64,000 nt of DNA from a virus. The first letter of the stretch is position 1, and each line of letters begins with the position of its first letter. Position numbers and translations under genes: made by a program. The notes under the pieces were generated by a model. That model ran no database searches and was not told the origin of the DNA. It was given only the letters and a program-made list of their open reading frames with translations. Below are positions 2,108 to 32,309 of the stretch, one piece after another. The DNA lies in IMG/VR virus record IMGVR_UViG_3300043444_000523, positions 40,737 through 104,736 of that record. One strand, given 5' to 3'.

Positions 2108-5100
2108 CTATTGCCGTTGCGGCTTGAATCCATTAGCCGGACTTGACTGCTTCCCTGATTGAGCAGCAACATTCGGCTTATCGCCAAGAGAATTCCGAAT
2201 CGCCTTCCTTGCGCCAGCAGCAACAAGAGCGACCAAAATTGACTTTGTTAGAGCCCTTCTCTGTGTTCCAGGATCGCCAAGCAACAAGTTTCCGAACTTC
2301 TTCAACGGCGAGTCTTTGCCAAAGTTGATTAACTTCTTTTGGTCTGGATGAGCCCGCTGAATAAACGAAGGCGGGATGTAATCCCCTTCGCCAAACTTCT
2401 GCCCCTCAAGCGTGATGCCGCCCTTCGGAGCACGCGGCCCCTTGGCCATGCTCTTCGGCATGTCCTGCGGAATCCGCATCAGCAACTTCCGGTTCAACTC
2501 GTGCAATTCTTCAGGCGTTGCATTCGAGATGAAGTCGCCGACATGGCCAGAGAGAGTCTCATGCAAGTGCTGCTGCAACTCTTTCTGAACTTCAGGAGGA
2601 GCATCGGCAATGAAGTCACTCACAGTTTGCTTGAGTTCAGGATCGAGTCGCTTTGGGACCGATGGCGATACTCCAAAAGCCTTACCAAGTCGCTTTTTGA
2701 CACTCTCAGACATCTTCTGCCTAATTGCGCCGCCCATCGTCTTTGGCTGAGTTGGGATCGGCTTGCGACCGTCGCCCTCTTGGGCCTTCTTGAGTTTGGC
2801 CTTCTCTTCAGGAGTCGCCGACTCCAGAACTTCGGACGGAATGAATTGACCGCCGATGTACTTCTTGCCTTGAAGAGTCACACCACCAACCGGAGCGCGT
2901 TCGGCTGCGTAGGGAACCGGCCGTGTCTTTGATTGATCGGTAACTGCACCAAGTCCTGCACCGCCAGCAGCACCCATCGTCCCGCCAATGGTAGCACCAG
3001 CAAGTGAGCCAACTGGACCAAGGATGCTCCCACCCACAGCGCCAGCAGCAGCACCGCCAGCACCTCCCATTAACCCACCTTTGGCAAGTCCTTTGAAGAA
3101 GTAAGGGACTGGAGACTTCTTCCCCTTGTTCTCAACCGGCGTGTCCTTCACACCAGCCGCCTTCAGTCCCTTCTCTGCGACCCAACCGACTGGGCCAGCC
3201 ACTTTGCCGCCCATCTTTGAGCCGAGTTTCTCACCGAGGAATCCGCCTGCAATTCCGCCGACTGTAGAAGTGATCGGGGCCGCTGGTCCTCCGAGCATAC
3301 CCAAGGTAGCACCAGCTGCGCCACCGCCGATTGCGCCAACAACTCCGCCAGCGTTGTTGTTCATCTTGGGCTTCGGGACTTCGTACCGGACTGGATTCTT
3401 CTTCCCGGCAGATACAACCGCGCCTTTCATCTTTGGCATGGATTTCACGTTCCTTAGCCACGGAGGATCAGCGTTCCCTGAATCACCTTGGGCAACAGCT
3501 GCAGCAGCCGGAGTCGCAGCCGGTGCAACATCCTTCGGCTTCCTCACATACTTCCTCTTCGGTTTCGGACTGTCCTGAACAGCAGTTGCAGCCGGAGCCT
3601 GTGCCGGATCGGCAACAACCGCTTTCCCAGGTGTTGCATTGGCGTTGATTGAACCAAGCAAATCGTCTCCGTCCGTGCCAGCTGCTTTCGGAGGAGGAGC
3701 ACTTCTTCGTCCAGCGCCTGGGGGCGTTGTCTTTGGAGTCGGCTTATTTGCCGTAGGCGGATTGCCTTTGCCAGCAACTGGAACATCGCCGTAAAGGCCA
3801 GCCAAAATGTCTTTGCCAAGCATCTCTGTCGCAGGTTGTCCAGTATTCCCGCCGTTCATCGGACCAGGGAAACCTCCCTGTGTTCCTGTCGGCGGAGTAG
3901 AAGGCTGACCGGCCAATCGCGCTGGGAATCCAGGCTGAACTCCTCCAGTGTCAGCTGGCAATGCTTCCATTCCAAGCCTTGACGGGAACCCTGGCTGTGC
4001 GCCATTGCTCGCTGCTGGAGTCGGCTTAACTGCCCCAGGAATTACCTTGTTCCTTTCAATCCTCTTTGCCCTATCTTGTGCCCGCTGAGCCACAGATTGC
4101 CTTGCTTGAGAACCCATACCCAACATTGCGCCGCCGCCAATTCCGGTTACACTACCGGCAATAGCGCCTTGTTTGATTGCCGTTCCAAGCCTTGATCGAT
4201 ACTCTTCGTCGGTCTCTCCAGGCTGTTGCCCATCAGCCATAATTCCGCTGCTGATACCAGTCAGCGCAGCACCGCTCAGTCCGCCAAGTGCCGATTGCTT
4301 CAGCACTTCGCTGGTTCGTGGGCTTTCACGCCGGAATTTCTGAACTGCACGAGACATCCTCTGGCCAAGTGATCTGTTGACCGGCGCATACTCTGTCGCC
4401 TGATTCTGAGTCGGTCCCATAGCTTTCCCGATCTGGTCTGCGGCCACCATAGAGCCGACTTGAGCGGCCCCTTGTTGGACAGCCGGATTACGAACTGCCT
4501 TGCCAGCACCTTTCGCAATCGCACCGCCTGCCTTGGCCAACGCTGCGCCGAAGCTGTACTGCTCGGCATCTTTGGTTTTCCCAAGTGCAACGTCGAACTT
4601 GCCATACTGCACCGGCTTCGCTTGCCCCATGCACATCGACTTCTGATCCGGCGTCATGGACCGAGCAAACGACGGCGGGATATGATGGCCAGCCTTAAAG
4701 TGATGGCCACCAATCTCGATGCCGCCTTTCGGGGCACGAAGAGAAGAGGCGTCGTATTTACCAACGGTCTTTCCTGCACCTGGGAAGAGTTCAGCGTTGA
4801 CTTTTTTCATAAACTCGGCCCCCTCTTTCCCTGTGACAATTCTCGTTCCAACAGGCTTCGAAGGGCGAATCATAAACCGTTCTCTTGGGGTCAGACCAGC
4901 AGTAGTGCCAATTGCCATCCCCCTACTAATCAAGGCAGGCACTTGCTCTTTGCTGAAATTGAGTTTCTTGGTCAGACTCTTGATGAGTTCTTGATCGCCC
5001 TTCTCTGGGTCGATTTTCGTCAATTGATGCGTGATTCTGTCGGCCCGTTCCTTGTTTTTCGACGCCCTATCAAACGCAATCTTGGCCAATGTGATCCTTC

Positions 5101-6529
5101 GGTCTGCCGCCATCCCCTTCATCACGCCAGCGTATTCCTTCGGCCCTGCCGGACTCACTGGCGCACCGAAAGACATGCCAGCGTAATTCGCCGGTTGGCC
5201 AGATACTATCGAGTCTGCAATCGCGTCGATGTTATTGCCGCCTGTATACTTCGCTGGCTTGCCTTTGCACGAACTCGTCAATGGCCGATTCTTGGCCGGA
5301 TCAAATCCAGACACCTCCTTGGTCATTCGGTCAATCTCTGCCTGACGAGCAGCGTTCTTCTGCTTTTGCATCGCTGCCGGATCAGCAGTTGGCTTGGCCG
5401 CAACAGACGTGCCCTTGGATGATTGCAAATCACGCGGCAACGGCTCTTTGAAACTCAAGAAGCCGCGCTGCGGAACGCCAACAGTCGCACCGGCGTACTT
5501 CGTCGGCTTCGTCTTGCCTGCAAACTGCCTTACTTTGGTTTCTTGGTTGTTCGGCAACATCGCCCGACGCGCCATGATGGCGTCGTTCTTCTGCTGCTTC
5601 ATCGCCCCACGAACCGCCGCTGCCGGAACTCCTGCTGCCTGAGCAAGAGTCGTCTTCCCAGCCGCTTGTGCAACCGCATCTGCCTTGGACGGAATCGCCG
5701 AGGCTCTTGTATTGGCCAACTTCTGTGCCGCTTCACCAACCGGAGTCTGCCTGAACTGACCTGCGGCCTCGTGCGCTGCACCGGCCAAGATGCGAACCGG
5801 GTTCTGTTTCAACGCTTGCCCGGTTCGCTTCAGCCGCTCCAGTTTGGCTTGTGCTTTTAGGCCAGGGGATACGTATTGTTGCGCCTCGTACATCGCCACA
5901 TAGTTCGGCGGGATCGGCTGGCCGGATTTGAACCTGTATCCGCCGATTTGGATGCCGCCTTGGGGGGCAACGCATCGTTTGCCGACAGTTTTCTTCTCCA
6001 TGGCGCGAACGATGCTCGAATACGGCATCGAATTGGCCTGATACGACACGATGCCCATCGGCAGGAACGGGTCGCGCTTCAAAAGCGCAACGCCAGTGAC
6101 CTTGTTCGAGTTCGGATAGAAGTCAACACTGCGGAACGGGTATTTTTTCGTGTCTTCCCAGTGTTCTTTGTCGTAGTACAACGTGGCCAAGACTGCCGGA
6201 GTACCCTTTGGCCCGAATGTGCCAACTTTCGCATTGCGAGCAACGCCAACAATGTCAGGCTGGAGCTTTTCAGGGTACGAAGGGTCGCTTTGTTGCCGAT
6301 GGCCGATGGTCATGATCGGCGGAACGCCGTATTCGGCCTCTCGCACATTGATCTGGTCCGCAATGAGCGGCAAATCCTGCGCAGTGACCACTATGTCAAC
6401 TTCTTCCCCGTTTGGCCCTCGCGTTTTCCGCGTGTGCGGCACGAAGATCGGCACATTCTCCACTCGAATGTACCGATTCGGGTCATTGATCTTGGCCAGG
6501 AAGTCGAGAGTTGGGTCGTTGGTTGCCAT
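2108..6529 (-). CDS. Giant prohead protease polyprotein (Mu gpI-like N-terminal protease plus ~1300-aa cargo)
   Basis: First ~165 aa carry IMTIGH...VGVARN...YPFRSVDFY...VTGVALL, the His/Ser pattern of Mu-gpI-like maturation proteases; sits between portal and scaffold; remainder is low-complexity with Gly zippers and repeated modules. ATG at 6529 preferred over TTG at 6550. Confidence 0.7.
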   Translation of the reverse strand: MATNDPTLDFLAKINDPNRYIRVENVPIFVPHTRKTRGPNGEEVDIVVTAQDLPLIADQINVREAEYGVPPIMTIGHRQQSDPSYPEKLQPDIVGVARNAKVGTFGPKGTPAVLATLYYDKEHWEDTKKYPFRSVDFYPNSNKVTGVALLKRDPFLPMGIVSYQANSMPYSSIVRAMEKKTVGKRCVAPQGGIQIGGYRFKSGQPIPPNYVAMYEAQQYVSPGLKAQAKLERLKRTGQALKQNPVRILAGAAHEAAGQFRQTPVGEAAQKLANTRASAIPSKADAVAQAAGKTTLAQAAGVPAAAVRGAMKQQKNDAIMARRAMLPNNQETKVRQFAGKTKPTKYAGATVGVPQRGFLSFKEPLPRDLQSSKGTSVAAKPTADPAAMQKQKNAARQAEIDRMTKEVSGFDPAKNRPLTSSCKGKPAKYTGGNNIDAIADSIVSGQPANYAGMSFGAPVSPAGPKEYAGVMKGMAADRRITLAKIAFDRASKNKERADRITHQLTKIDPEKGDQELIKSLTKKLNFSKEQVPALISRGMAIGTTAGLTPRERFMIRPSKPVGTRIVTGKEGAEFMKKVNAELFPGAGKTVGKYDASSLRAPKGGIEIGGHHFKAGHHIPPSFARSMTPDQKSMCMGQAKPVQYGKFDVALGKTKDAEQYSFGAALAKAGGAIAKGAGKAVRNPAVQQGAAQVGSMVAADQIGKAMGPTQNQATEYAPVNRSLGQRMSRAVQKFRRESPRTSEVLKQSALGGLSGAALTGISSGIMADGQQPGETDEEYRSRLGTAIKQGAIAGSVTGIGGGAMLGMGSQARQSVAQRAQDRAKRIERNKVIPGAVKPTPAASNGAQPGFPSRLGMEALPADTGGVQPGFPARLAGQPSTPPTGTQGGFPGPMNGGNTGQPATEMLGKDILAGLYGDVPVAGKGNPPTANKPTPKTTPPGAGRRSAPPPKAAGTDGDDLLGSINANATPGKAVVADPAQAPAATAVQDSPKPKRKYVRKPKDVAPAATPAAAAVAQGDSGNADPPWLRNVKSMPKMKGAVVSAGKKNPVRYEVPKPKMNNNAGGVVGAIGGGAAGATLGMLGGPAAPITSTVGGIAGGFLGEKLGSKMGGKVAGPVGWVAEKGLKAAGVKDTPVENKGKKSPVPYFFKGLAKGGLMGGAGGAAAGAVGGSILGPVGSLAGATIGGTMGAAGGAGLGAVTDQSKTRPVPYAAERAPVGGVTLQGKKYIGGQFIPSEVLESATPEEKAKLKKAQEGDGRKPIPTQPKTMGGAIRQKMSESVKKRLGKAFGVSPSVPKRLDPELKQTVSDFIADAPPEVQKELQQHLHETLSGHVGDFISNATPEELHELNRKLLMRIPQDMPKSMAKGPRAPKGGITLEGQKFGEGDYIPPSFIQRAHPDQKKLINFGKDSPLKKFGNLLLGDPGTQRRALTKSILVALVAAGARKAIRNSLGDKPNVAAQSGKQSSPANGFKPQRQ

Positions 6530-6577: not shown

Positions 6578-7282
6578 CTATTTAAGAGGTTTGGCCCCTT
6601 CGATGTCGTCGATATGTCCGCCCGGCAGCTTTTTACCAGCGTATCCAACTGGCTTTGTCTCTTCTTCGTCAGGCAGCGAATCCATCACATATGCCGGTAG
6701 CTCTACAATGTCGTGATTGCGAGCCTTCCTGATCCGATGCCGACCATCAATGATCTTTGTGACGCCATCCTTGTGCCAAATGAGAAGAGGATGCGACAAA
6801 TCGCATTCTTCTGCCCTCTCCACAAACGCCGGTGAACGGTCATGTTCGTCCGATTCCGAGTCCTGCATGAGTTTTGACAACTCATCGACTGGCACAAACA
6901 TCAACTTGGCCGACTCTTTCGCAAATTCGGCCAATTCGGGGATTCGATACTCCTTGCCACCCTCTTCTAACGACCACGTTTGGCCCCAGAACGGCTCTTT
7001 CTTGCCAACCACCGTGACCGCGTGCTCTTCAGAAGGATCGTCTTCAGTCGGCCTCTTGTGCTCCTCGACAATCAATGCCCCATCATCGCCGATATAAACG
7101 ACCGGATTTTCGTCGTCTTGATTTTCTACAGGCGCATCTTCTTGTGTGGACTCATCTTGTGGACTAATCGGCGCAATTTGCGCCGATTCTTCTGGGTTGT
7201 ATTCGTCGTCTTCGATAAGCAAATCCAATACAAATCCATTTGCATGAATGTGCCCTGAGAAAATCTCTTCCAGTTCAGGCAT
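6578..7282 (-). CDS. ParB/Sulfiredoxin N-terminal-like domain protein
   Basis: PLLIW...IIDGRHRIRKA motif; acidic N-terminus; no HTH evident. Confidence 0.7.
   Translation of the reverse strand: MPELEEIFSGHIHANGFVLDLLIEDDEYNPEESAQIAPISPQDESTQEDAPVENQDDENPVVYIGDDGALIVEEHKRPTEDDPSEEHAVTVVGKKEPFWGQTWSLEEGGKEYRIPELAEFAKESAKLMFVPVDELSKLMQDSESDEHDRSPAFVERAEECDLSHPLLIWHKDGVTKIIDGRHRIRKARNHDIVELPAYVMDSLPDEEETKPVGYAGKKLPGGHIDDIEGAKPLK
7166..7188. repeat. 23-bp palindrome, copy 2 (perfect, in CDS; encodes SAQIAPI)
   Basis: AATCGGCGCAA-T-TTGCGCCGATT. Confidence 0.95.
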
Positions 7283-7283
7283 G

Positions 7284-10200
7284 TTACACCAGATTGTTCT
7301 TTTTCAACACAGCCCAGCACTTCGGGAATTTTGCTTTGGCTACATTTGGCTTGGTTATGGCAAGACGAACATACTCTGCCCACCCCTCGTGAGCATTAGA
7401 CATTGCATATGAACTTAGCGGAGCTTTTTTCTCGTCTTCGTGCAGGATTTCAATAACCCATGCTTTTTTCCAATCAAAATCACTGCTGTAGGACAAATCG
7501 CCCAATTTGCCGTCAATAATATGGCCAATCTCATGGGCATAAACGCTGGACATTCTTGTGTCCGCAAGTTTCCCTTCGTGTTTTATACTCGGCGCGCCGT
7601 CAAGAAACATGCCGCCAGAACCAACCTCGACGGCTCCTCCAACTCTACCGTCATTATCCGTCGCTGTGGATTTTGATATATCTTCAGAAAGCCTCTTTGA
7701 TGTTGGATAGAACTTCACATGCCGAAGGTTCTTCAAAAGCGAGCCTTTCATCTTTGGATTCATACTGGAAATCGTCTTAACAATTCCAGACTTGAACTCG
7801 CTCTTGAGGCCATTCGGAATATCCTTGTCTTTGTCTATTGATGAATGAATCGCTGACACAAGATCATTGCTGTTCTTTGGATTGGCGGAAATGATATTCC
7901 CTTTTATCCACCTGTTTGGGTTTTCTGAAACAGGAGGGCGTGCAAATGCCGCAATTACACCGCCTACAGCCGCTGACGCTACCGCAGACTTACCAGCAAC
8001 AACCAGTGCGTGTTCTACAGAATCGCCTAATGCCATATTGCGTACAAATACAAGAGCCCCAGCAGTAGCAGCACTTCCAAAAGCGCCTTTCAAAAAGTTC
8101 ACAGCCCTTGCAGTAACAACGCTGTGCCCGTGAGTCATTCCTGGAACTTTTTCTTTTCTAACAACAGACGATCTTTTCCCAGGCGACAATGCCGCCTTTT
8201 CGCTCGAACTTGCTCTGGCAATCGCTTCTTTGGGTATAAACTCTCCGCCCTTGAAGTGCTCTCCGCCAACTTCGATTCCGCCCTTGGGGGCATGGACAGC
8301 CTCGTATCCAATTGCCTGATTCATAATCGGTGCAATTTGCGCTGATTTCTGGGAGTACGACTCCAGCGCCCTTGCAACAGCCGGTGCTAACGCGGACGCC
8401 TCTGCATTTGCCAGTTCTTCAAGGGCCACTTCGGACACTTGAATGCCACTACGCCGAATGCGGTTCTTGATCTTGTCCCGAATCCATAGCGATACAGCGC
8501 CTTCGCTGTGGCTGTCCGAAGACGGTTTATTGAGCAAATGAACCAACGCATCTCCAGCCACGTTCTTGGCGACATTTTTGATGTGTGCCCTCAAGTCTTC
8601 AGTCGGCTTGGATTCCGGCATTGGCTTTTCGCCGTCGATGCCAGACATGCTGAGCATCAGCGGCGCATACCGCTCTGCCGCTTCAGATGCCTCGCTCACC
8701 AAGTCTTCCTCAGTGGCCTCGATTCCGGCCTCTTTCATGGCCTCTTGCATCTTGCCCTTGAACAACTCGACAAGGTATTCGTGCATCACCGCCGAGGCCG
8801 GAACTTCATCCTGATAACCGACCATCCACTCGTCATCCTGGCTCGTTACTAAGCTGCCGCCCTTCTTTTTCATGAGCACGTCGAATAGCTTCGGGATGAG
8901 CATCACGCCCTTCTTGATGCCCAACACAGCCAAGTCCATCGTGGCCTGTGTCGCTGCCCGAAGAGCGAGTCTCTTCAAAGCATCTTTCTCGTTTGGAACC
9001 CTAGAAGACTTACCTGTCACCGGGTCTATCACGAGTTTTGTTTCATTAGGATCGATGCCAAGAGAGATTGCTGTCTTATCAAACGCTCCCTGTGCCAACG
9101 GGCTCTTGGCGATGTCTCGCCTCAGTTTCTTAGGGTCTCTGATCATCCGTTCCGCGATCTTGCCAGCGTACTTGGCCGTCTCGTGAGCCGCCTTCGGCAC
9201 GCCTCTGAGGCTCTGCTTCTTGTCAAACGCCTTCGACCGATTGCCGGAATACTGGTCGATGATCCGAAGCGCCATCGTGGCCACGGTGTCTTCGCCAGTG
9301 GCTGTAACTTCGCGCTCACGTTGATAAGCCCGACCACGGGCACGGGCATACTCATGCGGCGTTAGGCTACCGAATTCCTTGATCTTGTTCATCACATATG
9401 GCCGAAGTTTGAAGTCCGTCTTCAGCCAACGCTCGGTCTCTTGGATCAAGTCATACTCGTTGCCCATCAGGATCGGCTCATCAGGCTTCGGAGCCCGAAT
9501 CCCAGCCTGTTCCAGCATGTCATCGACAGTGGCCGGTTTGTCTTCTTGTTTTTCAGACCTGTCCATGCCGGTTTGCTGCGTCTCAGGCTTCTTGCCATGA
9601 TCCTGCGGCCTGGAAGCAGGCATCTCCGGCACTTTCTCGCCTGAAATCGCCTTCTGGCCAGCCAATGCCGCCTTCTCCTCCGGCGATGCGCGGGCAATCA
9701 CAGAGCCAGGAATAAACTGGCCACCTTCGTAGTGCTTACCGGAAATGTCAATACCACCCACCGGCGCACGAGTCGCCTTGTACTCAATCGTGAACTCATC
9801 ATCAGACACCGCCAAATACTCGATCACAAGGCCATCGTTGGCCATCGACACCTGCCCACCCTCTTCAGGCGGGGCCGGATCAAGAGGAACACTCGTCCCG
9901 TCAGCCAAACGAATGTAATTCCCGTCTTCCGTCTCGTCTGTGTTCTCTTCGCCCATGATTTCTTCAAGTATCTGATCAACCGTCATATCGCTGGCCTCTT
10001 CGGCCACTTGCTCGTCCCGCTGGACCTGTTGCTCTTGCTGCTCTTGGGCCGCTTGCTCCTGGGCTTGCTGTTCCTGTTGTTCCGCTTGCTGCTGCTCTGC
10101 GGCTTGTTCTTGGCCCTGTTGCTGCACTTGGGCCTCTTGATCTTGCGGCATCTCTTGAGGCTGGCCCTCTGCTGGAACTTGCATCTGTTGTTGCGCAGCT

Positions 10201-11723
10201 GCTTGCTGTTGCTGGGCCTGCATTTGCTGCTGCATCTGGGCTTGTTGGGCCTCCATCTGAATCTGCGTTTGCGCCTTGAGCAACTCAATCTGCGTCTCTG
10301 TTTGAACCTTGGACTGAACCTTAAGCAACATCTCCTGGTTAAGAATTTCATCGTCAGGCTCAGGAGCCTTGAGGCCAGCGTTGGCCAAAAGCTCGTCTTT
10401 CCTGACAGAGCCGCCCATCTGAAACACCGCCGAAGCATTCTTCAACTTCGCATCGGCCTTTGGATCATCAACATCAAATACAAATCTGACCCTGAAGTTG
10501 GCCTTGGGGAAATTCCATCGCTGAATTACAGGGATATAATCTTCAGAAAAAGTGTCGGCCAAATTGTTTGCGTCAAACTTCAGGATGCGCCATTTAGTGT
10601 TCTCATGGAACTGAGATACTCCGCTGCCAAGTCCCGTTGCCTCTGCATTGGCGCTCAAAGTCTGGCCGATGATCAATCGCTCGATGTGCTGCTCAAAGTA
10701 TTCCTTGACGATATTGATCAGGATGTTGATGCCGCCGCCTTCAAACCGAAGCAAATCAACACCGGCGGTATCCTTGCTCTGCCCACGGGTCTTCGGCATT
10801 GCGATGGCGTATCGTTCGCCGACGTTTTGGGCTGCGGCCTCGGCTTCTGCCTTGGAATTTGGATTGCCTTCATCATAGTAGAACACCATGATGCCACCGA
10901 TGCTCATCTTCTTCAGGTGGTTGATCGCCCACCCAAGCATCTCGTCACGAAGCTGGAAATTCCAGTAAATCTGAGACCGCAAGCCAACGCCATGCACGCC
11001 GCCTGACATCTCGCCTTCAAAGAAGTCGGCGTCAACGCACTGGTGTTTGTGGATGATGAACCGCTGCCGCCACTTCGGGTCTTTCAGCCGAAGCACCATC
11101 GACCTTTGATCCGAGAAAAGGTCTTCTTCCTTGACGATGCCGCGTTCTTTCAACGTCCGGCCAATAGAGTGATTGACCATCACCCTTGGAACATCGTCAT
11201 GGCCGTACAGGATTTTGTCGCCATTGACCGGCTTGTGCCCGACGACTCCAAGCCGATTCTGGCCATCAATCGGAATCGCGCCCCACTTGACCTGATTCGC
11301 GTATCGGCCATACCAGATCGCCCAAGCCAGCTGCCAAACGAACGGCGTCCACCGCGACGTATTGGCCACGATCTTCGACATATCATCAGTTACGGCCTTT
11401 TGAATCTTGCTCTTTTGGTTCTCAGGCTCAAGATGCCAGCCAAGAGCCGAAAGCTGAAGGAATCTCTCGTTCATGCATCCCAAAACGAACGCATCACGAA
11501 GCATCGCCAGCGCGTTTTCGCGGCTGTGCTTCGTGGCCTCGTCATGAGTCCATCGATGAGACCGAGTTACGGATTGATAAATTGATGAGAATGTTCTGTG
11601 CTGCGGCAACAGAAAGCCGCCCTCGTCTTCGATGGGTCGGCCATTGTGATCAAGCAGCCGAAGCGGTCCACTCCCGTTTCGGCTCATCAGGCCATTAACG
11701 TCTGGTTCTGGTAGCAGTGCCAT
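7284..11723 (-). CDS. Portal protein (DUF935/Mu gp29-like) with a ~1000-aa extension ending in a zinc metallopeptidase domain
   Basis: Portal-like motifs AIWYGRYANQVKW and IERLIIGQTLS...GLGSG...FHEN; Gln-rich linker; C-terminal VYAHEIGH...SSYAMSNAHEGWAE zincin motif. Confidence 0.8.
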   Translation of the reverse strand: MALLPEPDVNGLMSRNGSGPLRLLDHNGRPIEDEGGFLLPQHRTFSSIYQSVTRSHRWTHDEATKHSRENALAMLRDAFVLGCMNERFLQLSALGWHLEPENQKSKIQKAVTDDMSKIVANTSRWTPFVWQLAWAIWYGRYANQVKWGAIPIDGQNRLGVVGHKPVNGDKILYGHDDVPRVMVNHSIGRTLKERGIVKEEDLFSDQRSMVLRLKDPKWRQRFIIHKHQCVDADFFEGEMSGGVHGVGLRSQIYWNFQLRDEMLGWAINHLKKMSIGGIMVFYYDEGNPNSKAEAEAAAQNVGERYAIAMPKTRGQSKDTAGVDLLRFEGGGINILINIVKEYFEQHIERLIIGQTLSANAEATGLGSGVSQFHENTKWRILKFDANNLADTFSEDYIPVIQRWNFPKANFRVRFVFDVDDPKADAKLKNASAVFQMGGSVRKDELLANAGLKAPEPDDEILNQEMLLKVQSKVQTETQIELLKAQTQIQMEAQQAQMQQQMQAQQQQAAAQQQMQVPAEGQPQEMPQDQEAQVQQQGQEQAAEQQQAEQQEQQAQEQAAQEQQEQQVQRDEQVAEEASDMTVDQILEEIMGEENTDETEDGNYIRLADGTSVPLDPAPPEEGGQVSMANDGLVIEYLAVSDDEFTIEYKATRAPVGGIDISGKHYEGGQFIPGSVIARASPEEKAALAGQKAISGEKVPEMPASRPQDHGKKPETQQTGMDRSEKQEDKPATVDDMLEQAGIRAPKPDEPILMGNEYDLIQETERWLKTDFKLRPYVMNKIKEFGSLTPHEYARARGRAYQREREVTATGEDTVATMALRIIDQYSGNRSKAFDKKQSLRGVPKAAHETAKYAGKIAERMIRDPKKLRRDIAKSPLAQGAFDKTAISLGIDPNETKLVIDPVTGKSSRVPNEKDALKRLALRAATQATMDLAVLGIKKGVMLIPKLFDVLMKKKGGSLVTSQDDEWMVGYQDEVPASAVMHEYLVELFKGKMQEAMKEAGIEATEEDLVSEASEAAERYAPLMLSMSGIDGEKPMPESKPTEDLRAHIKNVAKNVAGDALVHLLNKPSSDSHSEGAVSLWIRDKIKNRIRRSGIQVSEVALEELANAEASALAPAVARALESYSQKSAQIAPIMNQAIGYEAVHAPKGGIEVGGEHFKGGEFIPKEAIARASSSEKAALSPGKRSSVVRKEKVPGMTHGHSVVTARAVNFLKGAFGSAATAGALVFVRNMALGDSVEHALVVAGKSAVASAAVGGVIAAFARPPVSENPNRWIKGNIISANPKNSNDLVSAIHSSIDKDKDIPNGLKSEFKSGIVKTISSMNPKMKGSLLKNLRHVKFYPTSKRLSEDISKSTATDNDGRVGGAVEVGSGGMFLDGAPSIKHEGKLADTRMSSVYAHEIGHIIDGKLGDLSYSSDFDWKKAWVIEILHEDEKKAPLSSYAMSNAHEGWAEYVRLAITKPNVAKAKFPKCWAVLKKNNLV
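8325..8347. repeat. 23-bp palindrome, copy 3 (in portal CDS; encodes SAQIAPI)
   Basis: AATCGGTGCAATTTGCGCTGATT, two changes from consensus. Confidence 0.8.
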
Positions 11724-15375: not shown

Positions 15376-16449
15376 TTAGCCCGCGACTTTTGGGGCCGGT
15401 TTACTGACGGCCCAAGCCCTCAAATTGAGGGCAGCGTTTCGGTCGGCATTTGTGGAGTGCCCGCAATGTTTGCAGACAAACTCAGACTGGCTCTTTCGGT
15501 TGGCACGCTCGCAGTGGCCGCAGACATGGCACGTCTGGGAACTGTATCGCGGGTCAACCAAGACTACGGACACGCCTGCCCGTCGGGCCTTGTACTCCAC
15601 AAACTGCCGAAGCTGAAAGAAACTCCAGTTGCCAAGTCGTCGCCGGAAACGCCTAGAAGCCGTTTGCTCACAACGGTCACGCAAACCGGAGAGGTTCTCC
15701 AGAGCGATACCGATGCCGAGTGTCTTGGCTTTGCCGACAAGACTCTTGCTGATGGCGTGGTTTACCCATGCTTGATAGCGGGACTGCCGCCCCGCCATCC
15801 GCTTCAACCGTCGCTTGGCAGACTTGGTTCCTTTCCGTTGGTACTGCTTACGGGCTGTCATCCGGCGCTTGCGGTTTCGTTCGACACCCGCACCGGAGAA
15901 CGATTCCCCGGTGGAGTCGGTAGCAATCTGGACAATGCCAAAGTCACAACCCAAGTATTCGGTAACCGGCTGTGGGTCGGAAACGGTCGCCTTGACTTGA
16001 ACATGCAGAAAGTAACCGCCATCGCGTTTGACAAGTGCAGCGCTGGTCGGAACCTTCCCCGCAAGCGCGGTTCGCTGAAAGTCGCCAAGTTGGGTCGTCA
16101 GTCGATGCCGCCCATGCAACAGGGTCAGGCTGAAAGTCCAGTCGGATTCTCGGAAGGAAAAGATTCGAGCATCGTAGTTCACGCTCGTAGGAGCAAATCG
16201 GGAGAGGTCTTTTACGGCGGCAACGCGACCGATGGCACGAACGGCCAGATTCGCCGACAGCCCGAACGCAGTCCGCGTTTCGCGGTAGGCCAATTTGTGC
16301 AGAGCGAGATGTCCTTTAGTCTCTGTCTCTGCCGCACGACGAACCAAGTGATTGCACGCCGCAGCGAAAGCCACAAGTGTAACGTCGATTTCAACCGCCT
16401 GTTCAGCGGTCGGAACCAGCTTGCAACAGATGGTACGGATGGCTTCCAT
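15376..16449 (-). CDS. tnpB: RNA-guided endonuclease TnpB
   Basis: RuvC LGCDFG / IALENL / ADRNAALNL; CHVC...CKHC zinc finger. Confidence 0.95.
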   Translation of the reverse strand: MEAIRTICCKLVPTAEQAVEIDVTLVAFAAACNHLVRRAAETETKGHLALHKLAYRETRTAFGLSANLAVRAIGRVAAVKDLSRFAPTSVNYDARIFSFRESDWTFSLTLLHGRHRLTTQLGDFQRTALAGKVPTSAALVKRDGGYFLHVQVKATVSDPQPVTEYLGCDFGIVQIATDSTGESFSGAGVERNRKRRMTARKQYQRKGTKSAKRRLKRMAGRQSRYQAWVNHAISKSLVGKAKTLGIGIALENLSGLRDRCEQTASRRFRRRLGNWSFFQLRQFVEYKARRAGVSVVLVDPRYSSQTCHVCGHCERANRKSQSEFVCKHCGHSTNADRNAALNLRAWAVSKPAPKVAG

Positions 16450-16842
16450 TCAGACACCCTTCTGGTTCTCGATGTACTGCTTGATAACGGCCAGAGGCGC
16501 GCCGCCAACAGTCGCGACAAAGTAGGAGTTCGTCCAGAGCGATGGCAACCGGCTACGCAACGCTGGGTACTCCGTGCGCAGGAACCGGGACGAACGGCCC
16601 TTGACCAACTTTATCAGCCGGTGGATTCCGAACTGTGGATCGACTTCAACGAGCAGATGTACGTGATCGGGCATCACTTCCATCTCGATCAGTTCCGAAC
16701 GGGTTTCAAGGATCACTTCCCGAATCAGATTCTTGAGCCGTTCATCAACGCCGTCGATCAAGACCTTGCGACGATACTTGGGGCAGAAAACAACGTGGTA
16801 CTTGCAGCAGTAGGACACGTTGTTATTGCTCTTGAGCCTCAT
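16450..16842 (-). CDS. tnpA: IS200/IS605 Y1 HUH transposase
   Basis: YHVVFCPKYRR, DHVHLL (HUH), LWTNSYF, YIENQ. Confidence 0.97.
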   Translation of the reverse strand: MRLKSNNNVSYCCKYHVVFCPKYRRKVLIDGVDERLKNLIREVILETRSELIEMEVMPDHVHLLVEVDPQFGIHRLIKLVKGRSSRFLRTEYPALRSRLPSLWTNSYFVATVGGAPLAVIKQYIENQKGV

Positions 16843-16948
16843 TCCTGTATTATACACGTCCGAGATGTCGAATGCCACCTCAGTAGCGTGGATTCGCCGT
16901 CTCCATTCCTCCCCATGCCTGAAGGCAGGGGTTTCTTGGAGACATTTC

Positions 16949-17044
16949 ATGAACAGCAAAGCCAAATTTTGGTTTGTGTTCGCTATTGTGTCTTCATGCT
17001 TTTGTGCGTTCTTATTCTCAATCTACTCATGGAAAGTCTGGTAG
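16949..17044 (+). CDS. Small hydrophobic protein between two mobile elements
   Basis: MNSKAKFWFVFAIVSSCFCAFLFSIYSWKVW; removing the IS gives AAAGGAGATTTC-ATG. Confidence 0.5.
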   Translation: MNSKAKFWFVFAIVSSCFCAFLFSIYSWKVW

Positions 17045-17059
17045 TGGCTCAACATGGTG

Positions 17060-17087
17060 TTGACAACCTGGACGACCCTGATAGAGT
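17060..17087 (+). promoter_or_regulatory. Sigma70-like promoter for tnpB, probably leaderless
   Basis: TTGACA-16 nt-TAGAGT preceded by TGA; GTG start 7 nt downstream; the -35 box overlaps the left TIR. Confidence 0.55.
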
Positions 17088-17094
17088 TATCCTT

Positions 17095-18270
17095 GTGCTG
17101 AAAACGATTACCTATCGTCTGTACCCGTCGCGGGAGCAGGAATCTTTCCTGTTCTACTTCCTCTACATTGGCCGCAAGATTTACAACGACGCACTTGCCG
17201 AGCGCGTCCGGTTCTACAAAGACACTGGCAAAAGCCTGACTAAATTCACGCAACAGATGGACCTGACGATACGCAGGTCAATTAGCCCGGTGCTTGCCTC
17301 TGTCCCTGTCTGGATTGAGCGAGACTCCCTGTCTAGGATAGACAAGGCATTCGCCAATTTCTTCCGCAGAGTAAATGAAGGGAGTGCCAAGCCTGGGTTC
17401 CCGCGATTCAAGTCAGCCAATCGCTGGAACAGTTTCTCAATGCCTATCCAAGGCAGTGGCAAGAAACTGGTGCAAGGAAATAGAATCCGCGTGGCCGGGA
17501 TTGAAGGAACAATGCCAAGCCGTGGCGGGCAACAAATACTTGGAAAGATCATTGTCCAGAGAATTGTTCATCGAGCAGGCAAGTGGTTCTGCAAGTTCGT
17601 AGTTGATGACAAACTCGACCCACCGCCTATTCATCCTGTAAAGTCGGCTATCGGCGTCGATGTTGGTCTGAAATCGTTTGCAACGCTTAGCAACGGTTCA
17701 ACGATTGAGAATCCACGATTCTATCGGGGACTGGAACTCAAGCGTGCCCATCGCAACGTGTCTCGTAAAATCAAAGGCAGTCGGAACCGATGGAGAGCCG
17801 TTCGTCGTCTTCAATCGGTTTATGAGAAAGTCAGAAACTTACGCCACAATTTTACGCATCACGAGAGCAAGAGGATTGTCAATGACCACCAACTGATTGT
17901 TGTCGAAAAACTGAACATAGCTGGCATGGCCAGAAGCCGATTTGCCAAAAGTATCTTGGACGCTGCATGGGGTCGGTTCATATTTCAATTGCGTTACAAA
18001 GCTGAAAACGCTGGTTGCGCATTCGTTGAAGTTGACCCCCGTGGCACAAGCCAAGATTGCAGCAAGTGCGGCCAGACCGTGCCAAAGAAGTTGTCGGATC
18101 GTGTCCATAAATGCTCTTGCGGTCTCGTGCTAGACCGCGACCATAATGCGGCGTTGAACATCCTTCAGCGTGCCGTTCGATCAGCACCCGGCCCCGGTAG
18201 GTGGATCGGTAAAGCGTGTGGAGAGGCTACGAAGACTCGGCGAAACACGAAGGCTTCAACACCATGTTGA
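17095..18270 (+). CDS. tnpB: RNA-guided endonuclease TnpB (second, unrelated copy)
   Basis: LKTITYRLYPSREQ N-terminus, GFPRFK, RuvC IGVDVG / VVEKL / DRDHNAALNIL all intact, CSKC...CSC finger. Confidence 0.93.
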   Translation: MLKTITYRLYPSREQESFLFYFLYIGRKIYNDALAERVRFYKDTGKSLTKFTQQMDLTIRRSISPVLASVPVWIERDSLSRIDKAFANFFRRVNEGSAKPGFPRFKSANRWNSFSMPIQGSGKKLVQGNRIRVAGIEGTMPSRGGQQILGKIIVQRIVHRAGKWFCKFVVDDKLDPPPIHPVKSAIGVDVGLKSFATLSNGSTIENPRFYRGLELKRAHRNVSRKIKGSRNRWRAVRRLQSVYEKVRNLRHNFTHHESKRIVNDHQLIVVEKLNIAGMARSRFAKSILDAAWGRFIFQLRYKAENAGCAFVEVDPRGTSQDCSKCGQTVPKKLSDRVHKCSCGLVLDRDHNAALNILQRAVRSAPGPGRWIGKACGEATKTRRNTKASTPC

Positions 18271-30803: not shown

Positions 30804-32309
30804 CTACTGTTTGGCCTCTTGGGTGTTCACTTGAACATGCGGCTTGGCCTGCTCGATGATTTGGCAGACATCGGCTTCATAGAATTGGGCAGACATCTCG
30901 ACACTGGCCGTGACAACGCTCGGCTTGGCCATGTCACAGATGATGGAGAGCTTGGTTACGCCTTTGGGGTTGATGCCGAGTGTTTTACAGAGCATTTGTC
31001 CGAATACGGATGATACGTTGAATTTCGCCTTGGGCTCATTTTTTGCTGGAGTCGCAAACGGGTCTTTGATCATGATAGGACTGCCGCAGCCATCCTCAAA
31101 AGAAATAAAAGAGTGCTCGCTTTTTAAAACAACGACTTTCACCCCGTAAACAAAGTCTGTTAGGCCATACTTGGCGTTTGTACTTTCAAAGAACTTCTCT
31201 CCCCAGTAGTTCCTTACATAGTCTCTGATCTCGTGCGTCCTTGACAGATCGAGCGCTGTCATCTCGCCGCCTATTATCATCAATATGCCTTCACTTGTTG
31301 GCCTTCTGAAATGCCTTGCAACATATCCAAGAGAGTTGTTTATTGCCATGAATCCAGGCGATCTAGGGTCAGCGCTGGCATGTGGCCAACCACTTACCAT
31401 CCTTAGAAAATCTCCGTGTAAAATTTCAGTTGACTCTTCTTTCTGACTGAGCGAGCGGAATGGGTCTTTGATTACGGCATTTTTGACATCGCCGTTAGTC
31501 ATTTTGGCACAAATCAAAATGCCGTCCACCTTCCCTTTATCTTTTTTGATAATTATCTCTAATCCGTACAAGAAGTGCGGTAGCCCCCATGCGGAGTTTG
31601 GCCAGACGTATTTGGCACCGTTGACCCGTGGCTGGTCTCCGACATACGTGGTGCGAATGTGTTCTCTCACTTCGTCTGTTTTTGAAAGAAGGCCAGCAGT
31701 TCTCTGGTCAATCTTCATAGAGACCTGCACAGGCGTCTCGCCGTTTGTAATAGAGGCGATGGCAATGTGAAGCGTTCTTTTGATTTCCAAGTAGTGCGGC
31801 GAATTAGGATCAGCATTTGCCTGCGTCCAGTCAAATGATAGTTCTGGAGTTTCATCGAATGCTTTTACTTGTCCAAGCATCCTCAAGATTTCCTTGCGAA
31901 TAATATCGGCGCTCAGCCCCTCTGCTTGCAGAGCCTCAGAAGCAAGACCTTCTGGCTCACGGATAAGGCCAAGCAATAAGTGCTCAGTCCCCACATAGTT
32001 GTGATTGAGGCTTCTGGCTTCCTCAATCGAGCATTCGATCACTTTTTTCACAAGAGGAGTATGCGAAAGTCTCCCCATCATCGCCGTCTCCAACTTTGGG
32101 CCGGTTTGGGCAATTGCTTCCACTCTCGTTTCGATCTTTCGGAGATCGATGTCGAGGTTTTTCAAGACATTGGCAGCTACTCCTGATCCTTCCTTGACCA
32201 GCCCCAGCAAAATGTGCTCGGTGCCGATGTACTCGTGGCTTAGACGTTGGGCCTCTTGGTTGGCCAGCTGCATCACCTTGCGAACCCTGTCGGTAAATCG
32301 TTCATACAT
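30804..32309 (-). CDS. Clp N-terminal (ClpC repeat) domain fused to a tandemly duplicated capsid-like fragment; no ATPase
   Basis: MYERFTDRVRKVMQLANQEAQR...IGTEHILLGL...VGTEHLLLGL; then two repeats W..A.ADP.SP...LS.T.E.R...N...GL..F.YG...IKDPF. Confidence 0.8.
   Translation of the reverse strand: MYERFTDRVRKVMQLANQEAQRLSHEYIGTEHILLGLVKEGSGVAANVLKNLDIDLRKIETRVEAIAQTGPKLETAMMGRLSHTPLVKKVIECSIEEARSLNHNYVGTEHLLLGLIREPEGLASEALQAEGLSADIIRKEILRMLGQVKAFDETPELSFDWTQANADPNSPHYLEIKRTLHIAIASITNGETPVQVSMKIDQRTAGLLSKTDEVREHIRTTYVGDQPRVNGAKYVWPNSAWGLPHFLYGLEIIIKKDKGKVDGILICAKMTNGDVKNAVIKDPFRSLSQKEESTEILHGDFLRMVSGWPHASADPRSPGFMAINNSLGYVARHFRRPTSEGILMIIGGEMTALDLSRTHEIRDYVRNYWGEKFFESTNAKYGLTDFVYGVKVVVLKSEHSFISFEDGCGSPIMIKDPFATPAKNEPKAKFNVSSVFGQMLCKTLGINPKGVTKLSIICDMAKPSVVTASVEMSAQFYEADVCQIIEQAKPHVQVNTQEAKQ

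Follow-up and report, generated by a model that had tools for sequence, protein, structure and literature searches.

Why should a phage gene that begins as a prohead protease continue for a further 1,310 residues in which searches of Pfam, PHROGs and NCBIfam recognise no domain? The question is raised by a stretch of 64,000 nucleotides (the window), which corresponds to bases 40737-104736 of the 104,736-bp virus record IMGVR_UViG_3300043444_000523, a phage of about 105 kb that is known only from metagenomes. The gene lies at 2108-6529, on the minus strand, as do all of the features described below unless stated otherwise, and encodes 1,473 amino acids (aa) from an ATG at 6529 to a stop codon at 2108-2110; the database copy of the protein (P0003) and its homologues use the same start. 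A first-pass annotation of this DNA proposed that the protein is a protease polyprotein cut at repeated Tyr motifs into membrane-active peptides with glycine zippers. Our analysis leads us to a related reading, namely, an assemblin-like protease-cargo polyprotein that would process itself at Tyr sites and release internal head peptides, some of them possibly membrane-inserting, and to which we assign a probability of roughly 55%.

The first step, the identity of the N-terminal domain (aa 1-163; 6041-6529, ending in MGIVSY163), can be taken with some assurance. An AlphaFold2 (AF2) model of this domain has a mean confidence score (pLDDT) of 86.5, with values above 94 over aa 11-150, and the top three of 48,161 chains compared using VIA-align were the proteases of varicella-zoster virus (Z 8.4, 111 aa, 3.2 A), phage T4 (gp21, Z 7.4, 115 aa), and human cytomegalovirus (Z 6.0). 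Foldseek searches of the viral models in BFVD returned annotated prohead serine proteases, DUF2213 proteins, and Mu I-like proteins with E values of 2.5e-8 to 1e-3, and in the PDB the best match was the pseudorabies virus protease (E 0.019); a profile search of the PDB by sequence found only a weak match to a scaffold protein (E 0.098). The expectation of a protease fold at the N-terminus was thus borne out. The domain also belongs to a sizeable family, with 800 cluster representatives at E<=0.001, all of them metagenomic, the best 150 of which are mostly about 350-480 aa long. In an alignment of 40 diverse members, the invariant columns are H32, H77, G95, R133, S134, L156, and G159. His77 (codon 6299-6301, in TIGHRQ) is the candidate catalytic His, Ser134 (6128-6130, within PFRSVDF, next to the likewise invariant R133) the candidate catalytic Ser, and His32 (6434-6436) the candidate third member of the triad, all three being invariant in alignments A1 and A3.

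The position of the gene fits as well. It sits in a Mu-like head module, with the order portal, ParB-like protein, polyprotein, scaffold, cement-like gene, and probable capsid gene, and hence between the portal and scaffold/capsid genes, where prohead proteases are located. Because fold, invariant Ser and His residues, and gene position agree, we consider the assignment of aa 1-163 to the prohead proteases of the assemblin/gp21 fold to be solid. This membership in the assemblin/gp21/HK97-type serine proteases holds at the level of the fold, a beta-barrel, and does not extend to catalogued families at the level of sequence. In Pfam, the polyprotein has no match at E<=1 and the 40 family members have none at E<=0.01, Peptidase_S78 and Mu-like_Pro included, and NCBIfam and PHROGs have no match for the domain either. 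A search of IMG/VR with the single protease domain gave no matches, one with alignment A3 gave eight protease loci, and the A3 profile matched nothing among genome contigs.

The second step concerns the tail and its tyrosines. The motif that recurs there can be written as K-P-[V/A]-x-Y↓[A/G/D/E], where the arrow marks the bond that would be cut. The polyprotein contains 16 Tyr after aa 220, two of which fall inside modules described below, and eight of the remaining 14 have Pro at position -3. The same bias is found when the seven long homologues are included; these measure 1,416-1,940 aa (P0004-P0010), and P0004 is the closest (best local alignment 49% identical). Downstream of the protease domain, these eight long proteins, P0003 counted, have 217 Tyr, 79 of them with Pro at -3, which is 4.1 times the background, with further enrichment of Lys at -4 to -6, Val at -2, Gln, Glu, or Lys at -1, and Ala, Asp, or Ile at +1. 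For seven of the eight proteins, PxxY is more frequent than in 5,000 shuffles (p<0.003), and across the genome the polyprotein has 10 PxxY, while every other open reading frame (ORF) has zero to three. A position matrix for which the PxxY sites of P0004-P0010 were the sole training data was applied to all 782 Tyr of the genome. The top 11 comprised eight in the polyprotein, two in the ParB-like protein (KPVGY214↓AGKK and NPVVY63↓IGDD), and, at rank 11, one in the scaffold (AVQY250↓AAKG); the ParB-like and scaffold proteins were outside the training set. Judging by the shuffles and this ranking, we take the motif to be real, conserved, and specific to three adjacent head genes, so that the claim that Tyr contexts are patterned beyond chance and belong to head proteins has stood up well.

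All eleven tail contexts quoted by the first-pass annotation are present, and to these we add two Tyr near the end of the protease domain. Tyr163 (6041-6043) is the candidate self-release site, and Tyr170 (6020-6022, NSMPY↓SS) is kept as SVPY↓SSI in P0004. In the tail proper, the top matrix score is that of Tyr642 (4604-4606, QAKPVQY↓GKF, 13.5), and high scores were also obtained for Tyr345 (5495-5497, KTKPTKY↓AGA, 10.2, rank 2 of 782), Tyr1049 (3383-3385, KKNPVRY↓EVP, 9.2), and Tyr1207 (2909-2911, KTRPVPY↓AAERAPVGG, 9.0); those of Tyr428 (5246-5248, KGKPAKY↓TGG), Tyr466 (5132-5134, PAGPKEY↓AGV), and Tyr1143 (3101-3103, KKSPVPY↓FFK) were 6.6, 5.9, and 5.2, respectively. Tyr449 (5183-5185, SGQPANY↓AGM) lies in a 19-aa insertion relative to P0004, Tyr592 (4754-4756) is found in KTVGKY↓DASSLRAPKGG, and the remaining two sites have counterparts in P0004, where Tyr658 (4556-4558, KDAEQY↓SFG) is kept as KEPEQY↓SFG and Tyr714 (4388-4390, NQATEY↓APV) becomes HKPAEY↓AIP. 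Cutting at these 13 Tyr would yield the 163-aa protease, a 7-mer, pieces of 175, 83, 21, 17, 126, 50, 16, 56, 335, 94, and 64 aa, and a C-terminal block of 266 aa. The motifs quoted for other head proteins are likewise present: VIEY, TIEY, MVGY, and AIGY in the portal, PVVY63 and PVGY214 in the ParB-like protein, and VITY151 and AVQY250 in the scaffold.

Several of these Tyr coincide with boundaries. At the end of the protease domain, the residue corresponding to Tyr163 is aromatic in 115 of the 133 family representatives in which the domain-end motif was found, 104 having Tyr and 11 Phe. AF2 confidence falls at this same residue, and BLAST alignments with five of the seven long relatives extend no further than aa 163-168. 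In six of the seven, the alignment picks up again no more than 13 aa from Tyr1207, where the conserved C-terminal block opens; that with P0009 starts at aa 1150. A global alignment of P0003 with P0004 has as its largest internal indel 155 residues that are inserted in P0004 exactly between AKPVQY↓ and KKPVSY↓GKF, that is, at Tyr642, and the 19-aa insertion in P0003 that holds Tyr449 duplicates a Tyr site. The idea that the motifs stand at junctions between unrelated segments therefore holds for Tyr163, Tyr642, and Tyr1207, which mark homology breakpoints or the P0004 insertion, and the gain or loss of cassettes at Tyr motifs that it led one to expect among related phages is seen in the two insertions. 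A further junction is found in P0164, where the portal extension runs on at its end into the ParB-like protein and a site near the junction, DQPVIY↓IGD, corresponds to ENPVVY↓IGDD in the window. This arrangement suggests that the ParB-like protein may itself be head cargo.

A conserved, head-specific motif would also be expected if P-x-x-Tyr served to dock onto the capsid interior, the portal, or the scaffold, with the polyprotein staying whole as a giant internal head protein, and large uncut head proteins do exist, given that a survey by Iyer et al. describes the N4 virion RNA polymerase as being packaged unprocessed (PMC5512222). We nevertheless find docking improbable. The motif coincides with the end of the protease domain and with the limits of modules and of homology; the ParB-like protein, encoded separately here, is part of a fusion in one relative, and both have a Tyr site near the junction; and the residue at the equivalent position before the modules is Tyr/Phe, Lys, Met, or Leu, depending on the lineage, and is followed by small residues, a pattern that is typical of the P1 and P1' positions flanking a scissile bond and unusual for binding. 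Thus, the Pro-x-x-Tyr signal is, by comparative evidence, most likely a self-cut site of the protease.

The modules just mentioned are copies of a mini-domain of about 40 aa, [H/R]-A-P-x-G-G-[IV]-x-[IVL]-x-G-x-x-[FY]-x-x-G-x-x-I-P, after which comes a helix (A-[ST]-P-E-E-K-A-x-L); we found no Pfam family that matches the mini-domain. Four copies of this RAPxGG module occur in the polyprotein, at aa 182-231 (5837-5986), aa 593-642 (4604-4753), aa 1206-1255 (2765-2914), and aa 1361-1410 (2300-2449). The third is the most canonical and is modelled by AF2 as a beta-hairpin with two helices (pLDDT 76-80), and the fourth reaches a pLDDT of about 72-81. Two more are found in the portal extension, at aa 647-696 (9636-9785) and aa 1139-1188 (8160-8309). 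Tyr592 precedes the AP of module 2 by seven residues and Tyr1207 that of module 3 by five. The C-terminus of the ParB-like protein, Y214↓AGKKLPGGHIDDIEG, resembles a degenerate module, and the peptide SAQIAPI is common to the portal (8310-8340) and the ParB-like protein (about 7150-7180) and directly precedes AIGY↓EAVHAPKGG in the portal.

A profile of the module matched 55 proteins, of which more than 50 (among them P0154-P0203) are encoded elsewhere than in this genome, and 44 loci in IMG/VR (L010-L053). Many are fusions to Portal_Mu or MuF domains that also carry ADP-ribosyltransferase (ART-PolyVal), ADPrib_exo_Tox, zeta-toxin, SNF2 helicase, topoisomerase IB, 2H phosphoesterase, NUDIX, or LPD1 domains, and an intein is also found among them. 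The modules tend to lie at the joints between these domains. For instance, one protein has a portal, a module at 426, an ART domain at 476-646, and a module at 671; another has a module at 906, an ART domain at 1002-1181, and a module at 1195; and in a third, a module at 506 separates the portal from topoisomerase IB. The module also occurs as an N-terminal leader on small ART and zeta-toxin proteins. We regard it as a stronger link to known cargo and polyvalent systems than any of the points made by the first-pass annotation, and term searches of the 2017 survey of polyvalent proteins (PMC5512222) returned no mention of a similar module or site. The profile also matched six loci in genome contigs, which belong to metagenome-assembled genomes of varied phyla and so point to no single host. 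Among the loci in which Lys precedes the module, L010, L017, and L018 encode proteins with the motif LVYADWLDEHG, which we take to be typical of Planctomycetes, and the module-bearing protein P0170 comes from Fimbriiglobus ruber; these observations may hint at the hosts of part of this phage group.

Which enzyme would do the cutting? Five residues ahead of the module AP, a large residue is followed by small ones (...[VI]-[RQ]-Y↓A-A-x-H-A-P...), the large residue being Tyr in 19 of 85 modules; other lineages have Met, Leu, Phe, or Lys there. All seven records in which we found the protease family (the window, L002, L004/L012, G001, G002, G006, and the P0009/P0173 contig) have Tyr or Phe at this position, and the family was not found in seven records with Lys, Met, or Leu (G003-G005 and G007-G010). 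Two of the Lys-type records encode HK97-type capsid proteins with N-terminal extensions, which is compatible with a Lys-specific HK97-like protease. Peptidase_S78 had no match in the Lys-type records, and neither did Mu-like_Pro, although the latter result is uninformative, as the same profile matched none of the control genomes. A similar covariation is seen in the scaffold-type site, since the two proteases that do not end in Tyr and keep a GAPxG site have Phe at that site, and the Tyr-ended members with a clear site of this type have Tyr. The position ahead of the module thus behaves as P1 would.

A different cutter, either a host protease or a zincin-like domain at the end of the portal, would fit a proposal, put forward in the survey by Iyer et al., that metallopeptidase domains process polyvalent proteins (PMC5512222). 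The portal does carry a HEIGH motif (aa 1397-1401; 7521-7535), which could belong to such a peptidase and is the sole evidence for it, as the surrounding region has no match in Pfam, NCBIfam, or PHROGs. However, HExxH is absent from the closest portal homologue (P0164) as well as from P0173, L002, and L019, all four of which keep Tyr sites, and the Tyr/Phe residue tracks the serine protease family. Because HExxH is so patchy among the Tyr-type relatives, we disfavour the portal domain as the processing enzyme and consider the serine protease the better candidate; cutting by another enzyme seems to us very improbable.

Taken together, these observations lead us to propose, tentatively and at somewhat less than even odds, that a large P1 residue followed by small-x-x-[H/R]-A-P-x-G-G forms a portable joint for loading and cutting, by which many uncultured phages would attach ARTs, zeta toxins, helicases, and topoisomerases, as well as Gly-zipper peptides, in strings to the portal, to MuF, or to the protease itself, with P1 (Tyr/Phe, Lys, or Met/Leu) co-evolving with the resident head protease. 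Most of the sampled phages with the RAPxGG joint have Mu-type portals.

The third step is to ask what the tail would deliver. Its 1,310 residues carry a net charge of +93 (isoelectric point 10.2), nearly every predicted piece is basic, and the composition is of low complexity (A 13%, G 12%, K 9%, P 9%). One might suspect from this composition a mis-called ORF or non-functional sequence in which the motif arose by internal duplication, but an open frame of 4.4 kb is kept in eight diverged homologues of 1,416-1,940 aa, the motif persists while its flanks diverge, and the same motif occurs in unrelated neighbouring proteins, so that this explanation is scarcely credible. The tail also contains distinct cassettes, and the three for which the first-pass annotation gave limits at Tyr sites begin and end exactly there. 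The first (aa 659-714; 4388-4555) contains a cationic amphipathic helix (SFGAALAKAGGAIAKGAGKAV), whose segment 659-680 has a hydrophobic moment of 0.57, a value equalled in none of 2,000 shuffles. The second (aa 1050-1143; 3101-3382) has 11 GxxxG and runs of 29 and 27 aa without charged or amide residues (D, E, K, R, H, N, and Q), along with weak matches to PHROG 1047 and 6922 at aa 1065-1136, and the third (aa 1144-1207; 2909-3100) has 12 GxxxG, 31% Gly, and a 47-aa run of the same kind. These two have what defines a Gly zipper by pattern, namely, repeated GxxxG in a hydrophobic stretch, with runs of 27-47 aa, and lack a profile match. Between the first and second lie two Gly/Ala/Ser-rich segments without charged or amide residues (746-765 and 788-807, within aa 715-810; 4100-4387), kept in P0004 at 910-929, and a Pro/Ala/Lys-rich spacer (aa 811-1049; 3383-4099), which looks disordered by composition and aligns poorly even with P0004. 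Runs without charged or amide residues span 19-47 aa, and Gly-rich ones are found in all eight long homologues, mostly within PxxY-bounded cassettes, with differing sequences. The C-terminal block (aa 1208-1473; 2111-2908), made up of module 3, a helical middle, module 4, and a basic tail, is the only tail region conserved in all seven long homologues by homology and in alignment A5; an AF2 model of aa 1195-1473 has a mean pLDDT of 56.7 and is confident only in the two modules.

Such a tail could also be cut at Tyr and yet release pieces that never enter a membrane, acting instead as an expendable scaffold core or as basic counter-ions for the DNA, with the Gly runs as flexible or self-associating spacers, in the manner of the core proteins and internal peptides of T4 or the core proteins of adenovirus. 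The charge of the tail and its fragments would suit this role, as would the abundance of Pro/Ala/Lys-rich, low-complexity sequence with low AF2 confidence outside the modules, the hydropathy of the Gly segments, which is just 1.0-1.5 or so, and the presence of scaffold sequence at the same position in short relatives. Still, runs of 19-47 aa free of charged and amide residues, with 11-12 GxxxG, are kept in 8/8 homologues despite divergence, which exceeds the needs of a spacer, and a separate acidic scaffold gene is already present, so that we view the core or counter-ion role as doubtful, though deserving of serious attention. Of the membrane-active peptides originally envisaged as an ejection channel or as toxins, the compositional part has held up, with the GxxxG repeats, the amphipathicity, and the charge-free runs all present. 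The hydropathy and the lack of a Pfam zipper match speak against membrane activity, and a toxin or bacteriocin role was set aside, as no evidence supports it.

The short relatives cast light on how the tail may have arisen. The tails of those sampled (P0011 and P0013-P0015) align by eye with the separate acidic scaffold-like protein of the window (312 aa; 961-1899; candidate sites VITY151↓AE and AVQY250↓AAKGAPIG), with which they have in common the elements ...LVYQL..G[VI]KAL... and, near the C-terminus, WEKD..[IV].Y↓A[AM].GAP[VI]G. Proteins such as Mu gpI/gpZ and herpesvirus pUL26 are protease-scaffold fusions, and the match between these tails and the scaffold gene argues that the common ancestor was, as far as alignment can tell, a fusion of this kind. 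The homology of the scaffold gene to the C-terminal halves of P0011 and P0013-P0015 therefore shows that protease and scaffold were split into separate genes in the lineage of this phage, where the protease bears a different, giant tail instead.

Returning to the self-processing polyprotein, we can outline how it might work. The protein would probably join the procapsid together with the scaffold, by means of its conserved C-terminal block and RAPxGG mini-domains. Once activated, the protease would cut after Tyr in [K]-P-[V/A/I]-x-Y↓[A/G/D/E/S], releasing itself first at Tyr163, as at the assemblin release site, and the tail would then be diced into about a dozen pieces. The scaffold would be cut at AVQY250↓AAKGAP, the analogue of a maturation site, detaching its C-terminal part, and the ParB-like protein and the portal extension would be trimmed. 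The pieces left in the head with the DNA would include both Gly-zipper peptides (94 and 64 aa), the cationic amphipathic one (56 aa), and the 335-aa piece with two Gly-rich segments. In what is the weakest step, the Gly-zipper and amphipathic peptides would exit with the DNA and insert in the host membrane as part of a conduit. Ejection proteins provide an analogy that makes such membrane entry at the time of DNA delivery plausible, with support no better than that for a role as internal core or DNA counter-ions. Cleavage and packaging, like the membrane activity of the Gly-zipper peptides, are thus what we infer from the patterns described above.

A number of points weigh against this scheme. 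Its support is comparative throughout, consisting of enrichment, head specificity, boundaries, and covariation in a phage known from metagenomes only. At the level of the protease, the VIA-align Z values of 6.0 to 8.4 are middling on the scale of the tool itself, and H32, H77, and S134 are candidates for the triad by virtue of their invariance, a role for which H77 and S134 would superpose on a catalytic dyad and Tyr163 would reach the active site. As for the sites, P0009 has no significant PxxY excess in the shuffle test (p 0.098), and those in the portal lack Pro at -3 and score low in the matrix. The Tyr-to-Phe covariation may reflect a single evolutionary event, and the seven-versus-seven split between records with and without the protease family does not amount to seven independent events, the family-negative records being 46-86% complete and mutually related. 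With regard to the peptides, the Gly segments are moderately hydrophobic (mean Kyte-Doolittle value of about 1.0-1.5), the Gly-zipper models of Pfam have no match at E<=1, and an Atlas search of the Gly-zipper region gave a best score of 0.81, a weak lead; the sole Gly-zipper lead in it was a cluster with Gly-zipper_YMGG in 53% of its members (score 0.78). Finally, a gene resembling that of a tape-measure protein is present in the genome, so an extra membrane conduit is perhaps unneeded.

How the proposed system relates to known ones can be seen most easily with the herpesvirus assemblin-scaffold precursor (pUL26/pUL80a), Mu gpI/gpZ, and P2 gpO, which, as here, have an N-terminal protease of the same fold and a C-terminal assembly part and are encoded between portal and capsid genes. 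Assemblin precursors are cut at a release site and a maturation site, with which the candidate self-release site at Tyr163 and the second conserved site near the C-terminus of the scaffold (Y↓AAxGAPxG) can be compared. However, the P1 residue of assemblin is Ala, whereas here it would be Tyr or Phe, the protease does not belong by sequence to Peptidase_S78 or Mu-like_Pro, and the scaffold is a separate gene, the fused part being a mosaic cargo of 1,310 aa. T4 loads IPI-III and Alt, the last of which is an ADP-ribosyltransferase, into its head, where gp21 cuts them at a short motif that recurs among them; a short N-terminal tag serves for both loading and cutting. The presence of RAPxGG modules ahead of ART and zeta-toxin domains in relatives of the proteins of this phage is reminiscent of this arrangement. 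Nevertheless, T4 proteins are cut at L/I-x-E and lose the tag, whereas here the cut would lie N-terminal to a folded mini-domain of about 40 aa that stays on the cargo, and T4 cargo is encoded by separate genes rather than strung on the protease and the portal.

In giant phages, head proteins are reported to be cut at A/S/G-X-E. For SPN3US and phiKZ, a gp21-like protease is described that processes many head-internal proteins at a short motif, and these are ejected (PMC7411985, PMC10052503). In comparison, the motif here is another one, the phage belongs to another group (105 kb, with a Mu-type portal), and the cargo is fused to the protease. Polyvalent proteins, as characterised in the survey by Iyer et al., are portal or MuF proteins fused to strings of effector domains and packaged in the head, with assemblin-like peptidases only at C-termini and metallopeptidases favoured for processing (PMC5512222). 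RAPxGG does occur in such proteins, together with ART-PolyVal, LPD1, 2H phosphoesterase, SNF2, and zeta-toxin domains, but the polyprotein has no recognised effector domain, against at least two in a polyvalent protein; the neighbouring portal, with its extension and candidate HEIGH domain, may qualify as one. The conduit function suggested for the Gly-zipper peptides has a precedent in podoviruses, whose ejection proteins (P22 gp7/gp16/gp20 and T7 gp14/15/16) leave the head before or with the DNA and build a conduit across the envelope (PMC8402733). Unlike the peptides proposed here, they are separate, folded, and uncut, no sequence or fold similarity connects the two, and this phage has a tape-measure-like gene. 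Thus, an aromatic P1 residue, an uncatalogued protease family, a protease that serves as the N-terminal carrier of cargo, and a folded joint module of about 40 aa common to polyvalent effectors set the proposed system apart from those known.

The Mu-type portal (7284-11723) matches Portal_Mu at aa 73-447 (E 1e-35) and has a C-terminal extension of about 1,000 aa with the Tyr sites TIEY↓KATRAP and AIGY↓EAVHAP, and the ParB-like protein (234 aa; 6578-7282) matches PHROG 1033 and has the sites PVVY63↓IG and KPVGY214↓AGKKLPGGHIDDIEG, which occupy ranks 6 and 8 in the matrix. Neither the protease domain and the tail nor the scaffold and the portal C-terminus could be placed in a family of Pfam, PHROGs, or NCBIfam. 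Downstream of the scaffold lie a cement-like protein, the probable capsid protein (365 aa), for which no family match was found, a Mu Gp36-like adaptor, and tail genes. In a tblastn search of 50,697 deposited phages, no matches were obtained for the whole polyprotein, the protease domain (E<=1), or the RAPxGG module. Elsewhere in the window, a 937-aa ORF on the plus strand (15457-18270) matches TnpB/OrfB_IS605 at residues 548-910 (E 1e-23), its N-terminal 540 aa match nothing, and the ORF call is possibly over-extended; a 501-aa protein (30804-32309, minus strand) has a double Clp_N domain (E 7e-32) without an AAA module.

If the cuts are real, a protease family of 800 representatives would gain a function and an unusual specificity for an aromatic P1 residue, and a maturation protease would double as the carrier of its own cargo. 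They would also provide a concrete and testable account of the loading and release of giant polyvalent virion proteins, a matter that the 2017 survey left open, with processing mainly ascribed to metallopeptidases, and the module of about 40 aa together with its site could be turned into a tag for loading foreign proteins into capsids. Should the portable joint exist as we propose, there would be a large uncatalogued family of Tyr-specific prohead proteases, and the loading and release of polyvalent virion proteins would be explained. Recurrent basic Gly-zipper cargo, for its part, may be a general and so far unstudied component of phage heads.

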